The notes under the pieces are model-generated. The model did no database searches. It saw only the letters and a program-made list of their open reading frames with translations, and was not told the DNA's origin. Below are positions 5,836-54,530 of a DNA stretch of 54,530 nt, in pieces (position 1 is the stretch's first letter; the number at the start of each line of letters is the position of its first letter). Source of the stretch: a virus (lineage: Duplodnaviria > Caudoviricetes); IMG/VR virus record IMGVR_UViG_3300012943_000039, positions 1 through 54,530 of that record. One strand, given 5' to 3'. The translations under genes were made by a program, and so were the position numbers.

Positions 5836-6267
5836 TTACTGCTCGTCGACTACCACGTTGACGTCGACAACGCCGTTCGCTGCGAGATTCCACAGAACGA
5901 CAGTCGTTGCCGGCGGGATGTAAAGCCCAGGCGCGATGAACTCCCACTTGACGTTGGACGAGATCGTCGCAGGGAACCCGACGCGTCGAAAGAAGTCTGC
6001 CGGCACTGTCGGTCCGGTACCCCACGCAATCGCCGTCTTGACGAGCGGCGGTACATCGCTCGCACCTTCGTTCAAGTTCGTGACAGGCGTTGTCGGCGTG
6101 ATGCCCTTCGCAGCTGGCCGGCCGAGTCCGTAAGTGCTCGCAGTCGCAGCGGCAAGAATGACTTGCACTTCACGCAAGAACGCGCCCTTCGTGCCGGCGA
6201 TGATTTCGAGTGCTGCAGCACCTGTCGTGCCGTCAGAAGTTCTCCGAGCGATTGAAGTTCTGATCAT
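5836..6267 (-). CDS. Hypothetical virion protein
   Basis: 143-aa beta-rich ORF, translationally coupled to both neighbours. Confidence 0.6.
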   Translation of the reverse strand: MIRTSIARRTSDGTTGAAALEIIAGTKGAFLREVQVILAAATASTYGLGRPAAKGITPTTPVTNLNEGASDVPPLVKTAIAWGTGPTVPADFFRRVGFPATISSNVKWEFIAPGLYIPPATTVVLWNLAANGVVDVNVVVDEQ

Positions 6268-11494: not shown

Positions 11495-11914
11495 TTACAA
11501 GTTCAGAACACTACGGACTAACCACTGTAAGTAATACGCCATCGGCTCATCTGCGCCGTTGCGCCACGTCGTCACACCTGAATCAAGCGTTGCGCCGCGC
11601 TCTTGGAAAACCCAGAAAGCAGCGTGCCAGATCTCGTGAGTCACGACAGAGACATCAGCACCTGGACGCAACCAAATGATGATGACGTGTAGCTTCGGGC
11701 TAATCGCGAGTCGCCAGCAACGACCGTTACAGCCGTCGACTGGCGACATAGCGACGTTGCGCACGATGCTAGGTGCGAGCTTCGCAATCTTCGACGTTCG
11801 CTTAATCAACTTCAACAGCGTCGGATGAAAATCCTGTTCCCGACTGCAGACGACGAAGTAATCAACGCGATACAGACGATCAGCGAACGAGCGCGCGAAC
11901 GGCTTCAATCTCAT
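11495..11914 (-). CDS. HExxH-motif protein (putative metallopeptidase fold)
   Basis: VVTHEIWH...DEPMAYY motif. Confidence 0.6.
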   Translation of the reverse strand: MRLKPFARSFADRLYRVDYFVVCSREQDFHPTLLKLIKRTSKIAKLAPSIVRNVAMSPVDGCNGRCWRLAISPKLHVIIIWLRPGADVSVVTHEIWHAAFWVFQERGATLDSGVTTWRNGADEPMAYYLQWLVRSVLNL

Positions 11915-13338
11915 TCGGTCAACGGTGGCGGGTCTTCAGTGCCCGCGGGCTTGCGCGTATCGATGTCTTTGCGCTCTTGCTCAGCGTTGACTCCTTCTCG
12001 CGCCCATCCGCCGGTGACGAGCAGGTTGTACCAAGTCTCGAATGACATTTCGCCAGACTGCAGCGCCGTCAACGCGACTTGAATTTCCTGCGGTGTCGCA
12101 CGAACGTTCAGGTACTCCTTGTTGAGCGCGACACTGACCTTTGCTTCGTTCGGTCTTGTGTCAGTGCCCTGCCACCAGACGCAAATCTGGAGCACGTCTG
12201 TAAACGCCTGTTCAAGACTCTGCGCAATCGTCTTCAACGACGCGACTTCGCCGCCGTGACGCATCTTCGCGCTCGTCGCCGTCTCGTCAATCGTAGGCGC
12301 ATCTTCAAGCAGACGGGCCCCGAGAGTCGCCATCTGCTTTTTCTTCTCGCTCATCGCTTCGACGAGCGCCTTGAGTCCTTCGCCGCTGAACTCAAGCATC
12401 CCGGCGCTACCCTGCAAGTCGAGTTCCCAGACGACAGACGGGCCGATCTTCATCGGCGCCGAGTCTGCGCCGCCTTTCGAGCCTGAAACCCACGGCGTTG
12501 GCAGCGCGACGAGATGCAACCCGTATTCATGGTCGACTGAGTTACGCCAGTGCGCCAGATTGACGTCAGCGAGATCGATCAGCGGCGGGTTTTCAAGGTC
12601 AGGCGTCGGCGCGACAGCGCCAATGAAGATGAACGGCACGAAGTCAAGCGGCTCGCCTCGACGCTGAAGAATGACTTCATCGCCGTTCATGACGTATTCA
12701 GTTGAGCCCTTCGACTTCGGCTTATACAGCTGACGAACGCAGACACCGCCCTTGAGGAACATCACGCGGTAATGTGTTTCTTTTTCGACGACGAACATGT
12801 CCGCCGGATTGTCGATCTCGACTTGCTCTTCAAGAACGACCATGCTCAAGATCTCGTCGCCGCCTCGTCGCTCAGTGCGCCAGTTGATAATGTTCTCTGC
12901 GCAGTAGCCTACGCAGTAAGGGCGCATGTCGACGTCCGTTCGCGGTGCTTCGCCAGGCGGCTGAATCGGCATGTCAACGAGCACGCCGTATCGCGCCGTG
13001 ATGAAGACTTCTTTTCCTACTTCAGTCGCGAACGATTCGAACGAGACGTTCGTCAGCGTCAGGTCGTCGAGCAGCGCCTTGAACGTCTCGCCAATGTCGA
13101 CCTTCGGCGCTGTCTGAAAGATTGACCCGTTCATGCCGTTGATCGTGCGTGACACGGCATTGTAGAAATTGCCGCGCTGACGATACTCGTTGTTGCCAGC
13201 TGTGTCAGTGCCCGGCAAGTCCGGCACGTATTTATTGCCAGCTTTGAGCACAGCATCACGACCATTCGAACAGTCGCGAACGCGCTTCCACTTGACGAGC
13301 ATCGCCTCAAAATCGCTGCGCGGTGTTTGAACAGGCAT
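11911..13338 (-). CDS. Portal protein (DUF4055-type)
   Basis: 475 aa; YRQRGNFYN, IINWR, PPLIDLADVNLAHWRNS, ETATS motifs; between terminase and head genes. Confidence 0.9.
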   Translation of the reverse strand: MPVQTPRSDFEAMLVKWKRVRDCSNGRDAVLKAGNKYVPDLPGTDTAGNNEYRQRGNFYNAVSRTINGMNGSIFQTAPKVDIGETFKALLDDLTLTNVSFESFATEVGKEVFITARYGVLVDMPIQPPGEAPRTDVDMRPYCVGYCAENIINWRTERRGGDEILSMVVLEEQVEIDNPADMFVVEKETHYRVMFLKGGVCVRQLYKPKSKGSTEYVMNGDEVILQRRGEPLDFVPFIFIGAVAPTPDLENPPLIDLADVNLAHWRNSVDHEYGLHLVALPTPWVSGSKGGADSAPMKIGPSVVWELDLQGSAGMLEFSGEGLKALVEAMSEKKKQMATLGARLLEDAPTIDETATSAKMRHGGEVASLKTIAQSLEQAFTDVLQICVWWQGTDTRPNEAKVSVALNKEYLNVRATPQEIQVALTALQSGEMSFETWYNLLVTGGWAREGVNAEQERKDIDTRKPAGTEDPPPLTE

Positions 13339-13397: not shown

Positions 13398-13790
13398 TCA
13401 ACCCAGTTTCCCTATGAATCGAAGAACTGCGAGCGTGCCGACCACGCTACCGATAATCAGCGTGATAATCCACTTCGCATCAATGCGCGACAGATATTGA
13501 TTGTCGCCTGTGGCAGCTGCCGGCAACTTGCCGACATACACCTGAATCTGATCTTGAATGACACGCGTCATACGATTCGACAGCGCGTGATACCGCTCGC
13601 CTACTTGCTCGATACGACGTTCAAGACGGCTCAGGATGCCGTCATGTGTAGAAATCCGACCGTGAGCTTTCGCCACGGAGTTGTCCATGTTCTCGATTCG
13701 ACGAACAAGATCACTATGACGGAGTGCGTCGTGACGTTCTCTGTCATCGAACCTCCGATCTAAGTGATCTAGGACTTCCCTGATGTCCAC
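13398..13790 (-). CDS. Coiled-coil protein with C-terminal transmembrane helix
   Basis: GTG start at 13790; ends KWIITLIIGSVVGTLAVLRFIGKLG. Confidence 0.55.
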   Translation of the reverse strand: MDIREVLDHLDRRFDDRERHDALRHSDLVRRIENMDNSVAKAHGRISTHDGILSRLERRIEQVGERYHALSNRMTRVIQDQIQVYVGKLPAAATGDNQYLSRIDAKWIITLIIGSVVGTLAVLRFIGKLG

Positions 13791-13823
13791 GGCAGCCCCA
13801 CGTAATGTAAAGCCCATCCCAAG

Positions 13824-13857
13824 TGTGGCGCTGATACCCTCAGGCATCAGCGCCACA
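13824..13857 (-). terminator. Hairpin, possible terminator or mRNA stabiliser after the Ig-like gene
   Basis: Perfect 12-bp inverted repeat TGTGGCGCTGAT/ATCAGCGCCACA; the U-tract is weak. Confidence 0.45.
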
Positions 13858-13881
13858 ACGCGATTCACAACGACGACGCGA

Positions 13882-14196
13882 CTAGCTCTGCTCGCTGACG
13901 GCGCCCGTGTCGATGACAGCGGAGACCGCGTCACCCGGGAGAACCGTGATGTCGAGCGAAGCGGCAACGACCGACTCGCCTTCGCCAACGATGCCGTCCG
14001 CGGTGAACGACAGCTGACCGGAGCCCGGTGCGCCGGCCTTGAACGTGCCCGCGGCGGGATTCGTCGGGTCGACTTCGAACGTGCCGAGATTCGGATCGCT
14101 GACAGCGAACACGGGATTTTCGAACGGCGCAACGTTGCCCTTCGAATCGCGACCGGTCACACTGACCGGAAACTGCTGCGTGTCTTTCAGTTGCAT
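13882..14196 (-). CDS. Small Ig-like beta-sandwich protein (104 aa)
   Basis: All-beta pattern VSVTGRDSKGN...VSDP...GSGQLSFTAD...LDITV; GAGG RBS. Confidence 0.65.
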   Translation of the reverse strand: MQLKDTQQFPVSVTGRDSKGNVAPFENPVFAVSDPNLGTFEVDPTNPAAGTFKAGAPGSGQLSFTADGIVGEGESVVAASLDITVLPGDAVSAVIDTGAVSEQS

Positions 14197-14198
14197 GG

Positions 14199-14345
14199 CT
14201 ACCTCTGCTGCGTAATGGGCCCAACAATCATGGTCACTACCTGCGGGGCCGCGTTCGCAGGCGGTGGGGCTGGACGTCGAAAGCGGCTATACAAACAGCC
14301 TAAGACGAATCCCAAAGAGAGGAAGACGAATGACGAGAGGTACAT
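14199..14345 (-). CDS. Small membrane protein with Pro linker and C-terminal VVTMIVGP motif (48 aa)
   Basis: MYLSSFVFLSLGFVLGCLYSRFRRPAPPPANAAPQVVTMIVGPITQQR. Confidence 0.65.
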   Translation of the reverse strand: MYLSSFVFLSLGFVLGCLYSRFRRPAPPPANAAPQVVTMIVGPITQQR

Positions 14346-14349
14346 CGTC

Positions 14350-14526
14350 TTAAAGTTTCTGCTCGACGACAGGGCCGACAATCATCGTGACGACGCGGAC
14401 CTGTTTCGGGTGCGGCTGCTCGACGTGACCGAGTGCTTTCATCACGCGATACGCGTCTGAGCCTGCTGCCGTGACTTGCACCGTCAGGCCTTTCGGCGCG
14501 ATTTCGACTTCAATGCTTCCCTTCAT
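14350..14526 (-). CDS. Small protein with C-terminal VVTMIVGP motif (58 aa; absent from the ORF track)
   Basis: AAGGAG RBS; MKGSIEVEIAPKGLTVQV...QVRVVTMIVGPVVEQKL. Confidence 0.7.
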   Translation of the reverse strand: MKGSIEVEIAPKGLTVQVTAAGSDAYRVMKALGHVEQPHPKQVRVVTMIVGPVVEQKL

Positions 14527-14537
14527 CTTGTGTCTCC

Positions 14538-15107
14538 TTACCGAATCTTCGACGTCAACAGACCGGCGCCGGCGCCGACAAGTGTGTCAGTCAACCAATG
14601 CTTACCGGCCATCACGCGCAGCCCGCCAGTCCCGATTGACAACGGCAGCACGAACGCGAGTCGCGGACCGCCGACTGTCGTAAAGGCGAGCGCGGTATGC
14701 GCGCTGTAGAACGAGAAGTTCGGATTGTCTGAGCCGCAATCAGGCGCGCATGGACGCTGACGGTGAATGAGCTTCTTGACAGCGAAAACAACGCCATACG
14801 TGACGCCGACGCGTGCGCCTTGAGCGACGAAGCAGCGAGCGCGATCAGCGCACTCCCACGAGTGCCGAGCGTCGAGCGCGACGACTGTAAGCACGGTGCC
14901 CCAGCTGGCGACGTCGGCAGCGTGACGCTGCGCCTCTGTCGGCAGCGCAAGACGCGGCTCTTGTGCGTGCGCAGCTGTCGTCAGCATGAGCGCGAAGATC
15001 ATCCCGCCTGCGACTCTGAAGATGAACCGCCAGACGTAATAGCAGAACGCGCCGCACATGAGCAGCGAGAAGACGACAACCCAGTCAACGCGTCGAAGTA
15101 ATCTCAT
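14538..15107 (-). CDS. PAP2-family membrane phosphatase
   Basis: All three PAP2 motifs: KKLIHRQRP (KxxxxxxRP), SFYSAHT (PSGH-like), RVMAGKHWLTD (SRxxxxxHxxxD-like). Confidence 0.85.
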   Translation of the reverse strand: MRLLRRVDWVVVFSLLMCGAFCYYVWRFIFRVAGGMIFALMLTTAAHAQEPRLALPTEAQRHAADVASWGTVLTVVALDARHSWECADRARCFVAQGARVGVTYGVVFAVKKLIHRQRPCAPDCGSDNPNFSFYSAHTALAFTTVGGPRLAFVLPLSIGTGGLRVMAGKHWLTDTLVGAGAGLLTSKIR

Positions 15108-15208
15108 CGGTCTTCAGGCGTATTAACCGCCTGCCAGTATCCAATAACCGCGATGGTTAGTACCGTAGTAAGCACACCCGCAGCGAAAGCAGCTAGTAAG
15201 GGGAGCAC
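15104..15208 (-). CDS. Small membrane peptide (34 aa)
   Basis: GAGG RBS, GTG start, MLPLLAAFAAGVLTTVLTIAVIGYW; ATGA overlap with the PAP2 gene. Confidence 0.5.
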   Translation of the reverse strand: MLPLLAAFAAGVLTTVLTIAVIGYWQAVNTPEDR

Positions 15209-15224: not shown

Positions 15225-16553
15225 TTACGCCCAGACGGCTTTACGTTGTCTAATCGCGTGCCTTACTCGTTCAGTCGCATACCTCAGCGGGTCGATAATG
15301 TGGTTCTTCTTGTCTTCAAGCACATTACTAATCACTTGAGTATGCGGGTCGACCTTGTATTTGTAGCCTGAGAACTCGTCAATCGTGTGCTTGCAGCGCG
15401 GATGAATGATGATGTCAAACCCTTGCAGGAAGATGACACCTTCTTTGACGCTGTTCGCACCTTTCTTCGCAGCTTCCATGCCGCCGTAGCCGTGACGACG
15501 CATGTATGAAATCGTCTCAGGTCGCGCGCTGTCAGCTGTGATCTGCGCGCTACGTGCCCAGCCGTGATTCGCTTGATCGCGGCACGGATGAGGAGACGGC
15601 GAGCCGTCTTCTTGCATCTCGCAACCGCACACGAGACCGTCGAAGAATGTCGGCAGATGGTCGATCTCAACGCCGACGCGGTACAAGTCACGGTCGATGT
15701 AGAGACGACGACGCGCCCAAGGCTCGCCGGTTTCAGGGTTGCGCTCACTGATGAACGCACGCACGAGCGACGAAGGGTCAACGCTGTATCCCCAGTCACC
15801 GCCAACGATGAAGATCGTACCTGGAGGCGCTTCAAAGTCTTGGACGCTGAAGTTCTTGAAGACACGTGCGCTGCTCTTGCGGTTGTAGCCGCCGGCCCAG
15901 ACATGCTGATACTTGTCAGGGTCTGTCTGTCGCGCCCACTCCATCTCTTTGCGCAAGACGCCAGGGAACCACGGGTTATCTTGCCAGTTAACCTCGACGC
16001 AGACAGATCGCGGATCTCTGTTGGGACCTCTGAACAACTGGTCAACAGGATCGTTTGGGTCATCAGGGTTCCAGCTGAACCACAGTTCAGATTCCCATAT
16101 GACGTTACCTGCGGCGTCTTTCTCTTCATAGCGAATCGTGGGCGTTAGTATCTCTAGTGAGTGCTGGCTTAGTGTCTGCGCCTCTTCAACCCAGCAACGT
16201 CGAAGGCCTTCAAGCGATTTGAGACTGTGCGCCGTATGATTACGCAAACCCTCAAACAGAATGACGCCATCGCCCGGTGTCTTAATCTGATTGTCTCGGA
16301 TGATGAACCCGTGTTCCTTCAATCCGAACTTGTGAATCTTGTCTTCTAGTAATTTCTTGCTCGACTCATCAAGCGTGCGCTGAAACTCACGAGCGCAGAG
16401 CGAACGCTCACCAGGATTCAAGTGAGCAATGATCATGCGCTCGGCAAAGAAGTGCGACTTCATCCCGCCGCGCCCGCCATACAGCCCCTTGTTTCTGACG
16501 TTCGCAAGAAGCGGCGCGAGCTTGCGCGGTACTTCGACCTGTAGCACTCCCAT
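15225..16553 (-). CDS. terL: Terminase large subunit (PBSX/SPP1-like)
   Basis: YGGRGGMKS Walker A, WVEEA Walker B, FSWNP, DWGY and NHIIDPLRYA nuclease motifs. Confidence 0.95.
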   Translation of the reverse strand: MGVLQVEVPRKLAPLLANVRNKGLYGGRGGMKSHFFAERMIIAHLNPGERSLCAREFQRTLDESSKKLLEDKIHKFGLKEHGFIIRDNQIKTPGDGVILFEGLRNHTAHSLKSLEGLRRCWVEEAQTLSQHSLEILTPTIRYEEKDAAGNVIWESELWFSWNPDDPNDPVDQLFRGPNRDPRSVCVEVNWQDNPWFPGVLRKEMEWARQTDPDKYQHVWAGGYNRKSSARVFKNFSVQDFEAPPGTIFIVGGDWGYSVDPSSLVRAFISERNPETGEPWARRRLYIDRDLYRVGVEIDHLPTFFDGLVCGCEMQEDGSPSPHPCRDQANHGWARSAQITADSARPETISYMRRHGYGGMEAAKKGANSVKEGVIFLQGFDIIIHPRCKHTIDEFSGYKYKVDPHTQVISNVLEDKKNHIIDPLRYATERVRHAIRQRKAVWA

Positions 16554-16715
16554 TCAATTCTCTACGTCTGCTGAGCCCTCACGCTTCCACTGGGCCTCGT
16601 TGCGATCTGCTTCGTTGCGCTTGCATAGACAGCAAACGCCGTCGACTTTCTCCTTGAGTGTGAGCACTTCACCACACTTCGGACAACGTTCGAAGTCGTC
16701 CTTCTTGCGCGCCAT
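16554..16715 (-). CDS. Small Zn-finger protein (53 aa)
   Basis: MARKKDDFERCPKCGE...VCCLC; abuts both neighbours. Confidence 0.55.
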   Translation of the reverse strand: MARKKDDFERCPKCGEVLTLKEKVDGVCCLCKRNEADRNEAQWKREGSADVEN

Positions 16716-16966
16716 CACGACTTGACAGTAACGCGCATGTTCTTCTCTTTGACCTTGACTTCTTTCGTCTGGCCGCCGGCATACAGGTTCTTTGCGCTGA
16801 ACCCTTTGACGACGAATGACGGCGTTGCCGGTAATCTCTCCATGACTGGCACGTTAAGTGACCGATGATTCAAGCATTCGACCTGCTCGTCAGCGTTACG
16901 TACCAGCACGTCTTTACGCACTGCGCCGCATTCAGGGTCAGGGCACTTGTAATCAAACAGTGGCAT
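16715..16966 (-). CDS. FmdB-family zinc-ribbon protein
   Basis: MPLFDYKCPDPECG...C...MERL...FVVKGF. Confidence 0.75.
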   Translation of the reverse strand: MPLFDYKCPDPECGAVRKDVLVRNADEQVECLNHRSLNVPVMERLPATPSFVVKGFSAKNLYAGGQTKEVKVKEKNMRVTVKS

Positions 16967-17153
16967 GGTCGTACCGTTCTCTCGATACTTCAGTCATGTC
17001 GAGGTCAACGAGCGTCGGCGTCGTGTCGCTGATCTTCGTGCTGACACGACTACACTTGCCGTGACAGTGGAGACGCGGTCTCGTGTTCTCATCAGGCACA
17101 TTGATGAGATCGCGGAAGCCACAACGCGGGCAGATGAAGAAGTGAACCGCCAT
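16953..17153 (-). CDS. Small Zn-finger protein
   Basis: CPRC...CHGKC. Confidence 0.55.
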   Translation of the reverse strand: MAVHFFICPRCGFRDLINVPDENTRPRLHCHGKCSRVSTKISDTTPTLVDLDMTEVSRERYDHATV

Positions 17154-47764: not shown

Positions 47765-47925
47765 CGCTGAAGTAGACGTCTCACGCTCAGTTGCAGCGCG
47801 AAGACGGCCAGGAACGGCGAAGCGAGAATCATTGCGGCCAGCATTGCGAGTCGAGCACTCACGATATCCTCCGGCGTGCGCTCGCTGTCGTCAATGAAGC
47901 ATGGCGCGATCTCGTCGTGGTTCAT
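47740..47925 (-). CDS. Small membrane protein at the end of the lysis cassette
   Basis: One hydrophobic segment; ATGA overlap. Confidence 0.5.
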   Translation of the reverse strand: MNHDEIAPCFIDDSERTPEDIVSARLAMLAAMILASPFLAVFALQLSVRRLLQRETKRAGR

Positions 47926-48290
47926 GACTTCAGGCTGTCGTCGTCAAGCGAGTTCATGACGTCGGCATAGCCGCTCATGCACTTCTCGACGCCTGCCATG
48001 AACAACGCCGGGTCCTTGACCTTGTGGCCCTTGAGCGCGTCAGACGCCAGGAAGACTTGCGCTGCGAGCGGTACGGCCGCCTTCAGCTTGTCGACGCCCG
48101 AGAGATTCAGGACCTGGCCCATGACTTCGACTTGCGTTGCGATGCCGGACAGCTTCGTCGTCGTGTCAACGGCCTTGTCGATAGCGCGGTCCACGTTGTC
48201 AGGTGTGAACTGCTTGACGATAGGCGCGCCGATCTGAAGGCCTGTTGATGCTTGCAAGAGAATCTGTCCGAGACGTGTGAGAAACTTCAC
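47922..48290 (-). CDS. Lysis-cassette hypothetical protein
   Basis: GGAGG RBS; 122 aa downstream of the endolysin and holin candidates. Confidence 0.65.
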   Translation of the reverse strand: MKFLTRLGQILLQASTGLQIGAPIVKQFTPDNVDRAIDKAVDTTTKLSGIATQVEVMGQVLNLSGVDKLKAAVPLAAQVFLASDALKGHKVKDPALFMAGVEKCMSGYADVMNSLDDDSLKS

Positions 48291-48302
48291 TGGGGAAACC
48301 TC

Positions 48303-48770
48303 CTAAGACTCCTTCAACACCTTTTTCAGCGCCCTCGCCATGGAGTCTGCCTGGACAGAGGGAAGCTGTTCATAGAAATACTGCTGAGCGGCGAACGAGA
48401 CGAGGCACGCAACAATCCACTCTTCAAAAGACGAGTGCTTGGAGCCGAATGCGAACGACCAGCCGTCCGGGTGCGCTGCGTCAGCTGAGTGATACGCCCA
48501 CGTCAAGCCTGAGCCCTGAAGGACAGAGACGCTGACAGCGAACCAGCGATTGGCTTTCGCGGCGCCGTCTTTAATCCAAGGGAACTTCTCCAGCTTCTTC
48601 AGCCATTCGAGAAAGCGAGGCATGAAGAACGACAGCAGCCCTGATGCCATGCTCTGCTGACCGAGCGCGACAGCTGTGGGAGTCGCGTCAGGATTGACAG
48701 CTTGCGCGTAGAGCACGGGGCCAAAGCCCACAGCACAGAGAATGATGAAGAGCTTCGTATAGCTTCGCAT
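48303..48770 (-). CDS. Putative holin / membrane lysis protein
   Basis: Several hydrophobic segments; immediately after the endolysin gene. Confidence 0.55.
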   Translation of the reverse strand: MRSYTKLFIILCAVGFGPVLYAQAVNPDATPTAVALGQQSMASGLLSFFMPRFLEWLKKLEKFPWIKDGAAKANRWFAVSVSVLQGSGLTWAYHSADAAHPDGWSFAFGSKHSSFEEWIVACLVSFAAQQYFYEQLPSVQADSMARALKKVLKES

Positions 48771-49265
48771 TTACGCCTCGTTGGTTGAGACCGGCTGTCC
48801 GTCACCAGCGAGGATGACAGGGCCAGAAGTGGGGAGCATCTTCTCCGACGGCCAACGAATCGCCGTCAGTCTGTCTTTCGAAATCCACGACGCCTTGACT
48901 GAGTTGTCTTGATTGCCGCCGAACACACGAAGCGTCCCGTCGATCTTCTGACCGAGGTAGAAACCCACGTGTCCGCCGCCCTTGCGCGAGAAGACGAGCA
49001 CGGCGCCGAGTGATGGCACGTCGAGCGGCTGGCCCCACGTCTCGTAAGAACGAGCAGACATGCTGCCGGTACTCTTCAACCCGTCTTCAATCAAGCAGCT
49101 GCCGACGAAGAGCGCACACCACGGGATATCGTCGTCTTTGAAGAACGACTTCACCCAGCCGCCGAAACGAGCGGCCATGGCGAGAATCTTTGGATTGCTG
49201 CCTGGCCCCGGCACTTCAGCGGTGCCGGTGTATTTCTTCGCGATTGTCAGCCAGCTAGGTTCCAT
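48771..49265 (-). CDS. Endolysin, TIGR02594 / NlpC-P60-like peptidase
   Basis: PWCALFV, ARSY..WG, GGGHVGF, GGNQ motifs. Confidence 0.9.
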   Translation of the reverse strand: MEPSWLTIAKKYTGTAEVPGPGSNPKILAMAARFGGWVKSFFKDDDIPWCALFVGSCLIEDGLKSTGSMSARSYETWGQPLDVPSLGAVLVFSRKGGGHVGFYLGQKIDGTLRVFGGNQDNSVKASWISKDRLTAIRWPSEKMLPTSGPVILAGDGQPVSTNEA

Positions 49266-54336: not shown

Positions 54337-54530
54337 TTAGTTCTTGGCGATCAGTTCGAACTGATGAAGTGTCACGCTGCCGGTTGCGACAGTCTGCGTG
54401 AAGAACAAGTCGACTTGCTGTGTCGCCGTCGAATCGAAGTTGTTGCCGACAGCTGGCGCGCTGTTCCACGGGAGCAACGCAGCAAGAACGCCCTTCGGGG
54501 CGGACGCCGGAACGCCGAGGATGTCCTCAC
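54337..54530 (-). CDS. C-terminal part of the junction-spanning gene that starts at 484
   Basis: ...QQVDLFFTQTVATGSVTLHQFELIAKN; stop TAA at 54339-54337 abuts the ATG of the IPT/TIG gene. Confidence 0.8.
   Translation of the reverse strand, partial: EDILGVPASAPKGVLAALLPWNSAPAVGNNFDSTATQQVDLFFTQTVATGSVTLHQFELIAKN
54408..54530. repeat. Terminal direct repeat (copy 2)
   Basis: Identical to bases 1-123. Confidence 0.95.

Follow-up and report, generated by a model that had tools for sequence, protein, structure and literature searches.

A C-terminal peptide shared by three neighbouring genes of a tailed phage: a possible detached strand of an Ig-like fold

Why should three small proteins that are encoded side by side in a phage genome, and are otherwise unrelated, all finish with the same short peptide? 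The question is raised by positions 13,882 to 14,526 of IMGVR_UViG_3300012943_000039, the complete viral record of a tailed phage whose 54,530 bp are the whole stretch analysed here (the window), where three genes on the minus strand encode, in order of transcription, proteins of 58, 48 and 104 amino acids. An initial annotation took the peptide to be a beta-strand that completes the fold of the immunoglobulin (Ig)-like 104-residue protein and lets it polymerize head to tail, with the 48-residue protein as a membrane anchor and the 58-residue protein as an alternative adaptor. I will argue that this mechanism, although unproven, is the best available reading of the locus; the present analysis supports protein-level selection on the peptide and adds its conservation in homologous loci and its tie to the Ig core in fused relatives, while the insertion of the strand and the polymerization are what I infer.

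The coordinates and translations of the three genes given in that annotation hold, and all features of the locus listed here lie on the minus strand. The 58-residue protein (14350-14526), a candidate soluble adaptor or 'initiator' preceded by a strong Shine-Dalgarno (SD) sequence, AAGGAG, is made up of a beta-hairpin and helix module (the LKALG helix) followed by the shared peptide, hereafter the connector (V43-Q56, VRVVTMIVGPVVEQ, 14359-14400), and ends ...QVRVVTMIVGPVVEQKL. The 48-residue protein (14199-14345), a putative membrane tether, consists of a hydrophobic transmembrane (TM) helix at residues 3-20, the residues RFRR, a proline-rich linker (PAPPPANAAP) and then QVVTMIVGPITQQR, with the connector at Q35-Q47 (QVVTMIVGPITQQ, 14205-14243). 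The complete gene for the 104-residue protein (13882-14196) encodes a predicted Big_2-like Ig core at residues 1-86 (13939-14196; seven predicted strands) and a connector tail at P87-Q103 (PGDAVSAVIDTGAVSEQ, 13888-13938), the product ending ...LPGDAVSAVIDTGAVSEQS. The stretch VVTMIVGP is common to the 58- and 48-residue proteins, with all 8/8 residues identical, and yet, as had been noticed, its two copies (gtc gtc acg atg att gtc ggc cct versus gta gtg acc atg att gtt ggg ccc) differ at six of the eight third codon positions without a single amino-acid change, which argues that the connector is under selection at the level of the protein. The tail of the 104-residue protein is a weaker copy (G-A-V-S-E-Q) that matches the tail of the 58-residue protein at four of 14 aligned residues (G, V, E, Q). 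Expressed as the pattern G[PA][VI].[EQD][QS].{0,3}$, which was derived from these three genes and makes the test post hoc, the motif is found in 3 of the 1104 stop-to-stop open reading frames (ORFs) of at least 30 residues in the six frames of the window, exactly the three neighbours, and no window protein outside the trio ends in it. As a control, 20 triplet shuffles of the window gave 0-5 identical 8-mers common to non-overlapping ORFs over all pairs, and for this reason an 8-mer match in adjacent genes, at an equal distance from the C-terminus, is not put down to chance.

The shared ending is therefore real within the window, and it is kept well beyond it. All ten homologues of the 104-residue protein (52-88% identity) retain the tail as V.h.h..G[AP]V.[ED][QS], and across the 11 sequences P87, G88 and V100 are invariant and L86, D89, A90, V91 and G98 nearly so; one homologue, P0008, ends VGPVTEQV, with seven residues identical to the tail of P0002, a homologue of the 58-residue protein. 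The family of the 58-residue protein has eight members, in which M48, V50, G51, P52, V53 and Q56 are invariant and the most conserved parts are the LKALG helix and the terminal M.VGPV.[ED]Q, the latter kept in 8/8. A consensus for the connector can be written h-x-h-x-h-G-[PAT]-[VP]-x-[ED]-Q, often after P-x-[DE]-A-V. The motif is likewise conserved in a second split locus, L002, a 4.2-kb IMG/VR contig on which a 67-residue homologue of the 58-residue protein, ending VMIVGPVTEQKL, lies directly upstream of an Ig gene whose product ends INAGAVEEQA. The surroundings of this pair are unlike those in the window, with head-tail genes, a methyltransferase-like gene and a major-tail-like gene downstream, and the adaptor-Ig pair is therefore, as far as gene content can tell, a mobile two-gene unit, to which the TM tether would be an addition in the window's lineage. 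The initial annotation had suggested looking in homologous loci for an upstream TM protein with this tail; in L002, the sole other split locus read, none lies between the adaptor and Ig genes. A DNA pattern for M-I-V-G-P-V-x-E-Q matched the L002 contig alone among viral contigs, a contig scan with family alignment A3 returned the same contig (L019) together with a chance match on the opposite strand of a portal-like ORF (L020), and an Atlas search with the 58-residue protein reached a best score of 0.80, at noise level. As a side observation, the reading frame of the L002 Ig gene extends, without a stop, 24 codons beyond its SD-preceded ATG to an upstream GTG (2305-2376), and the W/R/L-rich stretch thus encoded (TTIRRWLRRWFFAVWPRFRRRQH) has the look of an amphipathic helix that binds membranes, comparable to those of P0022, P0050 and P0153.

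What, then, does the connector accompany? The Ig-like fold proposed for the 104-residue protein was borne out by AlphaFold2 (AF2), Foldseek and VIA. From an 11-row alignment, AF2 predicts a confident beta-sandwich over residues 1-86 (predicted local confidence, pLDDT, ~90; 82-93 by blocks over residues 1-80); Foldseek matches of this model in the PDB include SbsC S-layer Ig domains (E 1e-3), Rib domains and the lambda gpV C-domain (2l04, E 5e-3), and its matches in BFVD are BIG2 proteins. The core of P0023, a fused relative discussed below, was compared by VIA and matched the phage SU10 virion protein (Z 11.1), SbsC (Z 10.7), lambda gpV residues 170-246 (7t4f, Z 10.2, root-mean-square deviation (rmsd) 2.2, 77 aligned), the Big_2-CBM56 structure 7r3t (Z 9.7), the capsid-fused Ig domain of mycobacteriophage Douge (Z 9.2) and phi29 gp8 (Z 8.0). 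By these models the 104-residue core is superposable on solved Big_2 domains and has a Big_2-like Ig fold. At the level of sequence the protein had no Big_2 (PF02368) match at E of 1 or less in the Pfam scan and no PHROG family match; structural rows of the Atlas name Big_2, and many viral clusters of ~105 residues are without any family. Neither tblastn with three queries (the window Ig protein and two family members) against 50,697 GenBank phage genomes nor blastn against GenBank phages gave a match, a PDB sequence search with the Ig profile gave nothing usable (best E 0.16), and no close relatives were found in single-protein scans of viral contigs or in scans with family alignments (A1 and A7 on genome contigs, A1 on metagenomes). 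Full-text literature searches, with supplementary files outside their scope, turned up neither this family nor a phage donor-strand system.

A search with an Ig-family profile was far more productive, giving 1248 cluster representatives at E of 1e-3 or less and 187 at 1e-10 or less (at least 1248 clusters at 50% identity), and the relatives examined were the 147 representatives shorter than 400 residues among the best 150 of the 1248. Core-only proteins, like that of the window, account for 48 of the 147; the remaining 99 are extended at the N-terminus by more than 12 residues (a TM helix, a coiled coil or a small alpha/beta module), and in 19 of these 99 the motif G[PA][VIM].[EQD][QS] stands ahead of the Ig core. 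A TM helix is present in 15 of the 99 long forms, 13 of them with more lysine and arginine after the helix than before it, like the 48-residue protein, and other long forms begin with amphipathic W/L/R-rich helices or long coiled coils. When 20 fusions are aligned, the N-terminal connector (L.W.VGPV.EQ) falls in one column block; 10-25 variable residues separate it from the core (LQLTDTQQ...), usually with a Met just before the latter, and the core in turn ends AV.L.h..G.P.EQ. P0023 is a colinear fusion of a module like the 58-residue protein to the Ig core; the 58-residue protein is colinear with its residues 7-65 (hhalign, 55 columns, E 1.4e-4, probability 53%), and its N-terminal connector, PAVSLKITVGAITEQ, resembles the window Ig tail, DAVSAVIDTGAVSEQ, at a profile score of 3.9 bits, which is not significant. 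The window trio is thus, judged from these fused relatives, the split form of an anchor-connector-Ig-connector protein, with two alternative anchors as separate genes.

Two further properties of the relatives bear on how such a protein may be put together. The Met at the start of the core is kept in 87 of the 99 long forms, and an SD-like 4-mer is found at -16 to -4 of the core-start ATG or GTG in 13/13 loci with DNA, against 268 of 2093 in-frame codons (12.8%) in the control, although about eight of the 13 loci are independent because nine of 15 belong to one actinophage clade. From this conserved Met and its SD-like site the family appears to make a long anchored and a short core-plus-tail product from one frame, and both start sites of the long genes would be in use. 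The second property is the register of the repeats in the giant protein P0024 (5362 residues), in which 39 stretches match the profile and mostly form a tandem array that repeats every 104 residues, the length of the window Ig protein (~9-10 bits each, summed E 3e-21). In this array, what follows the last strand of one repeat (...TYTAGDVDLGHGNTTLNVSPSS) already belongs to the beginning of the next, and by this register the window protein would start just past a first strand and end with one. Residues of about 1300-4700 in P0024 hold more than 30 near-identical Ig repeats of exactly 104 residues.

The location of this system can be approached through the 48-residue protein, which has no lysine or arginine before its helix and three after it, and by the positive-inside rule its tail would therefore lie in the cytoplasm. 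Its TM helix and charge pattern make it look like the membrane tether that the initial annotation saw in it, just as the 58-residue protein, a soluble module with a connector, looks like the alternative adaptor. The gaps inside the trio are 4 and 2 nt, and the ATG of the 48-residue ORF, 4 nt past the stop codon of the 58-residue gene, has no clear SD, which suggests translational coupling to that gene; the Ig gene has a GAGG upstream. The GC content of the 48-residue ORF by codon position (0.53/0.49/0.67) is highest at the third position (GC3) and resembles that of the portal gene (0.62/0.42/0.70). A programmed frameshift joining this ORF to the Ig ORF was considered, the Ig frame being +1 and open for 30 codons upstream, but it was rejected, with no recognizable slippery site and nothing else that points to a shift. 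An o-spanin-like lipoprotein would have a lipobox Cys after a signal peptide with a positively charged n-region. When the ORF was tested as a lipoprotein (o-spanin-like), its VLGC fitted the lipobox pattern, but the ATG start gives no lysine or arginine before the helix, and an alternative TTG start (14381) that would add R and K lies inside the 58-residue gene and has no SD; TM-fused relatives are without a lipobox-like Cys. Elsewhere the family is found in phages of very different GC content and context, at module borders: in L007 it follows an endolysin and a TM protein, in L008 it precedes the terminase genes, in L006 it comes behind RusA and in L004 it lies among small membrane proteins. 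Membrane association on the cytoplasmic side seems to be the one recurring theme across the loci.

How could such a peptide work? My first candidate, to which I would give somewhat less than an even chance, is that the connector is donated in trans as the missing first strand of an Ig domain, joining anchors and Ig units in the manner of donor-strand systems; that the result is an open-ended fibre is about half as probable. The Ig core models of the window protein and P0023 have seven DSSP strands, and the structural alignment of the P0023 core begins at residue 170 of the gpV domain, which spans 157-246 and, in passages of PMC8718954, is described as two four-stranded sheets. A seven-stranded core with a late alignment start fits a missing first strand, and together with the register of P0024 these features suggest that the connector is the detached A strand of an Ig repeat. 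The 104-residue protein would then be one repeat unit cut in a shifted register, beginning after its A strand and carrying a C-terminal copy of it, and the connector would be donated to the seven-stranded core of another subunit (beta-strand complementation), hardly its own, given that beyond its last strand the chain finishes at the opposite end of the domain. Chains would be started by donor-only subunits, namely the 58-residue soluble module and the 48-residue TM tether with its cytoplasmic tail, and extended head to tail by the Ig protein, which would accept a strand as well as donate one. Given an N-out, C-in orientation of the TM helices, assembly would take place on the cytoplasmic face of the membrane and yield short non-covalent Ig strings tethered at its inner face, and in the relatives the same logic would be contained in one gene with two starts, the long form supplying anchor and core and the short form the core only. 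Binding of the peptide to the Ig core, polymerization and topology are all presumed here, and late in infection the product could scaffold or tether some phage process at the membrane.

The complex prediction that had been proposed as a check was run as Ig family versus 58-residue family and lends weak support to binding, with an ipSAE of 0.34 (runs 0.32, 0.38, 0.34) where the best control reached 0.00; agreement between the runs extends to at least 90% of contacts, with a partner pLDDT of at least 48. Among 80 solved complexes 58 reach the mark used for such predictions, as do 2 of 110 mismatched pairs; at an ipSAE of 0.60 or less it is reached by only seven of the 80 and by both of the passing mismatches. 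AF2 of P0023 from a 30-row alignment gave pLDDT 59-79 for the N-terminal module (beta-hairpin and helix) and 86-98 for the core. Completion of the Ig fold in cis by the N-terminal connector of the fusions was rejected, since AF2 leaves this connector of P0023 unstructured and predicts no docking; docking in trans is what I propose.

Several points weigh against donation of the strand and should be read together. In the range of this ipSAE (0.34) a pass is wrong more often than it is right, and the prediction reports no interface. The tail of the 104-residue monomer is of low confidence in AF2 (pLDDT blocks of 54 and 49) and has no secondary structure, the P0023 N-terminal connector has pLDDT ~51-53, and the P0023 C-terminal tail forms no strand despite pLDDT 74-81. 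The 10-25 residues between connector and core in the fusions exceed a normal A-to-A' link, and long forms have two connectors for one presumed acceptor site. When fused relatives are compared, their N-terminal connectors are colinear with the Ig tail, but the score is not significant (at most 3.9 bits, at profile level); Big_2 in Pfam at E of 0.01 or less is reached by four of 50 relatives (best 7.1e-6) and not by the window protein; and the TM-tail gene has no homologue in protein searches and is missing from L002. As a separate observation, in alignment A6 of 30 family members the invariant columns are Q81, A128, G132, D156 and Q177 (P0023 numbering), and the two glutamines among them, the Gln of the tail E-Q and the first Gln of the core T-Q-Q (Q81), are not explained by the proposed model.

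The disorder just described is also what would be expected of a linear motif that folds on binding, in the split and the fused forms alike, and it may be, although I would rather bet against it, that all three proteins, and the bivalent long forms of relatives, use the connector to dock at one site on a third partner, either a virion protein (capsid, tail tube or connector) or a conserved host protein at the membrane, with the Ig core simply displayed as in phage decoration proteins. The closest solved folds would suit such a role, being virion-displayed Ig domains (SU10, lambda gpV-C, the Douge capsid protein, phi29 gp8), as would the position of both split loci within structural modules (between the large terminase TerL and portal in the window, beside the major-tail-like gene in L002) and the two copies in the long forms, which would provide avidity. 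However, the connector always accompanies an Ig core and ends no other window protein, TM-anchored forms with a cytoplasmic tail fit the decoration of virions poorly, and a host partner would have to be nearly universal because the family spans phages of such different GC content and context; the complex score with the Ig core, against 0.00 with unrelated proteins, also speaks for the core as partner, if weakly.

If AF2 docks the connector on the core neither in cis nor confidently in trans, the connectors (VVTMIV, AVSAVI) might instead zip together into an intermolecular beta-sheet, giving a defined hetero-oligomer of anchor, adaptor and Ig protein in which the Ig fold is not completed and no open-ended polymer arises. 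All partners do carry a strand-like element with alternating hydrophobic residues, and the two connectors of a long form could join with each other or with those of a second molecule; AF2 nevertheless left the two connectors of P0023 unpaired, the G-P-x-x-E-Q end and P-x-D/E-A-V start look like the boundary of an Ig-repeat domain, and zippering does not explain why the short form starts exactly past a first strand, which leads me to regard it as unlikely. Considerably less probable still is that a single enzyme handles all three proteins and recognizes the peptide as a signal for processing (a protease site after [ED]-Q), turnover (a degron) or targeting (an export tag). Such a signal would account for the placement of the motif 0-3 residues from the C-terminus in most free-standing proteins, for its position between anchor and core in the fusions, where cleavage would free the Ig domain, and for the invariant tail Q in 30 aligned sequences, but it is hard to see why one to three terminal residues should be removed, a free core is already available from the conserved internal start, P0020, P0027, P0028 and P0029 continue for 20-60 residues beyond the motif, and in none of the loci read is a protease or export gene linked to it. 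That the peptide has no present function at all, being the relic of a partial duplication with a chance likeness in the Ig tail, or that the 48-residue ORF is not a gene, is barely credible: the ORF does lack a homologue and a clear SD and the Ig tail does match at only four of 14 residues, but six synonymous differences with zero amino-acid changes over eight codons, packing with gaps of 4 and 2 nt, the coding-like GC3 of the ORF and retention of the motif across two families and their fused relatives all oppose it.

Returning to strand donation, it is worth asking what it would resemble. Chaperone-usher pili and capsular polymers (Fim, Pap, Caf1) are built from Ig-like subunits that lack one strand and are completed by a peptide of the next subunit, head to tail and non-covalently, with special subunits that begin or terminate the chain. 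The proposed phage system would share with them the incomplete Ig-like subunits, the alternating-hydrophobic donor peptide and, by prediction, special chain-starting subunits, whereas the missing strand here is apparently the first (A) and not the last (G), the donor peptide is C-terminal and not N-terminal, and the proteins are encoded by a phage, have no signal peptide and are predicted to work at the cytoplasmic face of the membrane. None of the 36 window proteins scanned against PHROGs matched a chaperone or usher family, and the trio are not members of the chaperone-usher pilin family, although they may work alike. PMC3708895 mentions the Caf1/F1 polymer.

Phages also carry Ig-like domains of their own in better-known settings. 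Big_2 Ig-like domains on virion proteins, such as the C-domain of lambda gpV and T5 pb6, are described in passages of PMC8718954. They have the same fold as the window family (VIA Z 8-11, rmsd 1.3-4.2 A over 73-81 residues), and both are phage-encoded and found in or beside structural modules, but the virion domains are complete and covalently fused to the C-terminus of a structural protein, while those of the window family are free-standing or carried on TM or coiled-coil anchors, flanked by connectors and probably produced from a nested start. Ig-like capsid decoration proteins include T4 Hoc, T5 pb10 and those of N4, and Hoc attaches via its C-terminal part (PMC10385173, PMC5292684, PMC11768535). 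These too are small phage proteins that combine Ig-like modules with a separate attachment element, but this element is a folded capsid-binding domain, as opposed to a 14-residue peptide common to neighbouring genes. No Ig-like decoration protein is known to be anchored by a TM helix.

The remaining parallels are with the nested starts and with engineered strand pairs. In-frame dual-start phage genes are represented by the S107/S105 holin-antiholin pair of lambda and by nested scaffold genes, and the long forms described here would likewise give, from one frame, a long and a short product with effects on one another, through an internal start with its own conserved SD (its use being deduced from sequence), although these products would differ by a whole anchor module plus connector where S107 and S105 differ by two residues. 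SpyTag/SpyCatcher is an engineered split pair derived from the CnaB2 domain that forms an isopeptide bond. The proposed connector would similarly be a strand peptide complementing an Ig-like domain that lacks this strand, but among the five invariant columns of the 30 wider relatives (Q, A, G, D, Q) there is no Lys; K4 and T6 are invariant in the 11 close homologues, and a covalent isopeptide link is unsupported because no Lys is invariant across the 30.

Taken more broadly, it could be that many uncultured tailed phages build non-covalent Ig strings by donor-strand exchange on the cytoplasmic face of the membrane, primed by donor-only initiators and extended by core-plus-connector units. The initiators would be of several kinds (a TM helix, an amphipathic or coiled-coil helix, or a small soluble module), each ending in a connector strand, and the extender units would come from a nested internal start or a separate gene. 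I consider this generalization doubtful, but if it were true it would be the first donor-strand polymer beyond the periplasmic pilus systems, the first whose A strand is replaced by a C-terminal donor, and an intracellular scaffold of a new, phage-made class. Whatever the outcome, there is a large unannotated phage Ig-like family of at least 1248 clusters, with a window protein that has no Pfam or PHROG family, and its modular design is unusual: anchors, whether membrane-bound or soluble, are interchangeable, while the flanking peptide and the internal start are both conserved. Should the connector prove to be a detachable Ig strand, phages would have reached the assembly principle of bacterial pili independently and put it to use inside the cell, and the family would offer both a handle on what tailed phages organize at the inner membrane late in infection and a naturally occurring pair of peptide and domain, compact in genetic terms, for use in protein engineering. 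Should it dock on a third partner instead, the peptide provides a short motif and a set of baits for finding that partner.

As for the setting, the window carries an exact direct terminal repeat of 123 bp (1-123 and 54408-54530), in agreement with the DTR label of the record, and by its PHROG matches is a siphovirus-type phage. These matches include the small and large terminase subunits, portal, scaffold, major head protein, head-tail adaptor, major tail protein, tail assembly chaperone, DNA polymerase and helicases; the match to a scaffolding protein is accompanied by a weaker one that mentions a head maturation protease, and 495-2855 is likely the tape measure by size and position, its sole PHROG match being a weak one to a family of unknown function. 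The trio lies between the large terminase (15225-16553) and the portal (11911-13338), and is transcribed after a 34-residue TM ORF (15104-15208, minus strand) and the gene it overlaps, which encodes a PAP2-family phosphatase of 189 residues with several hydrophobic segments (14538-15107, minus strand; Pfam PAP2 E 1.2e-7, 32 bits against a cut-off of 27.2). These two may or may not be part of the connector module; a lipid-phosphatase-type enzyme within a head-gene module is unusual, and it may be a moron acting on envelope lipids. After the trio comes a coiled-coil protein with a C-terminal TM helix (13398-13877, minus strand; start uncertain, likely an ATG near 13847), in which the connector motif was not found and which matches phrog_1193 'hemolysin' (E 1.7e-5), presumably XhlA-like. 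The protein encoded just upstream of the L002 adaptor gene is built differently, with an N-terminal TM helix and a coiled coil.

A few observations from elsewhere in the window may be added. Between the small and large terminase genes (16554-17153, minus strand) there are ORFs of 54, 83 and 66 residues with CxxC...CxxC, resembling zinc ribbons. In the head-tail connector region, a 143-residue protein (5836-6267, minus strand) ends ...GVVDVNVVVDEQ, with a hydrophobic strand and D-E-Q at its C-terminus and no G-P, a faint look-alike of the connector that may be due to chance. The connector locus was rejected as the main lysis cassette because a lysozyme-like gene is located elsewhere (48771-49265); it belongs to a probable lysis region at 47922-49265 on the minus strand, which encodes this lysozyme-like protein (phrog_1259/phrog_21357), a 155-residue protein with a signal-peptide-like N-terminus and a protein of 122 residues.

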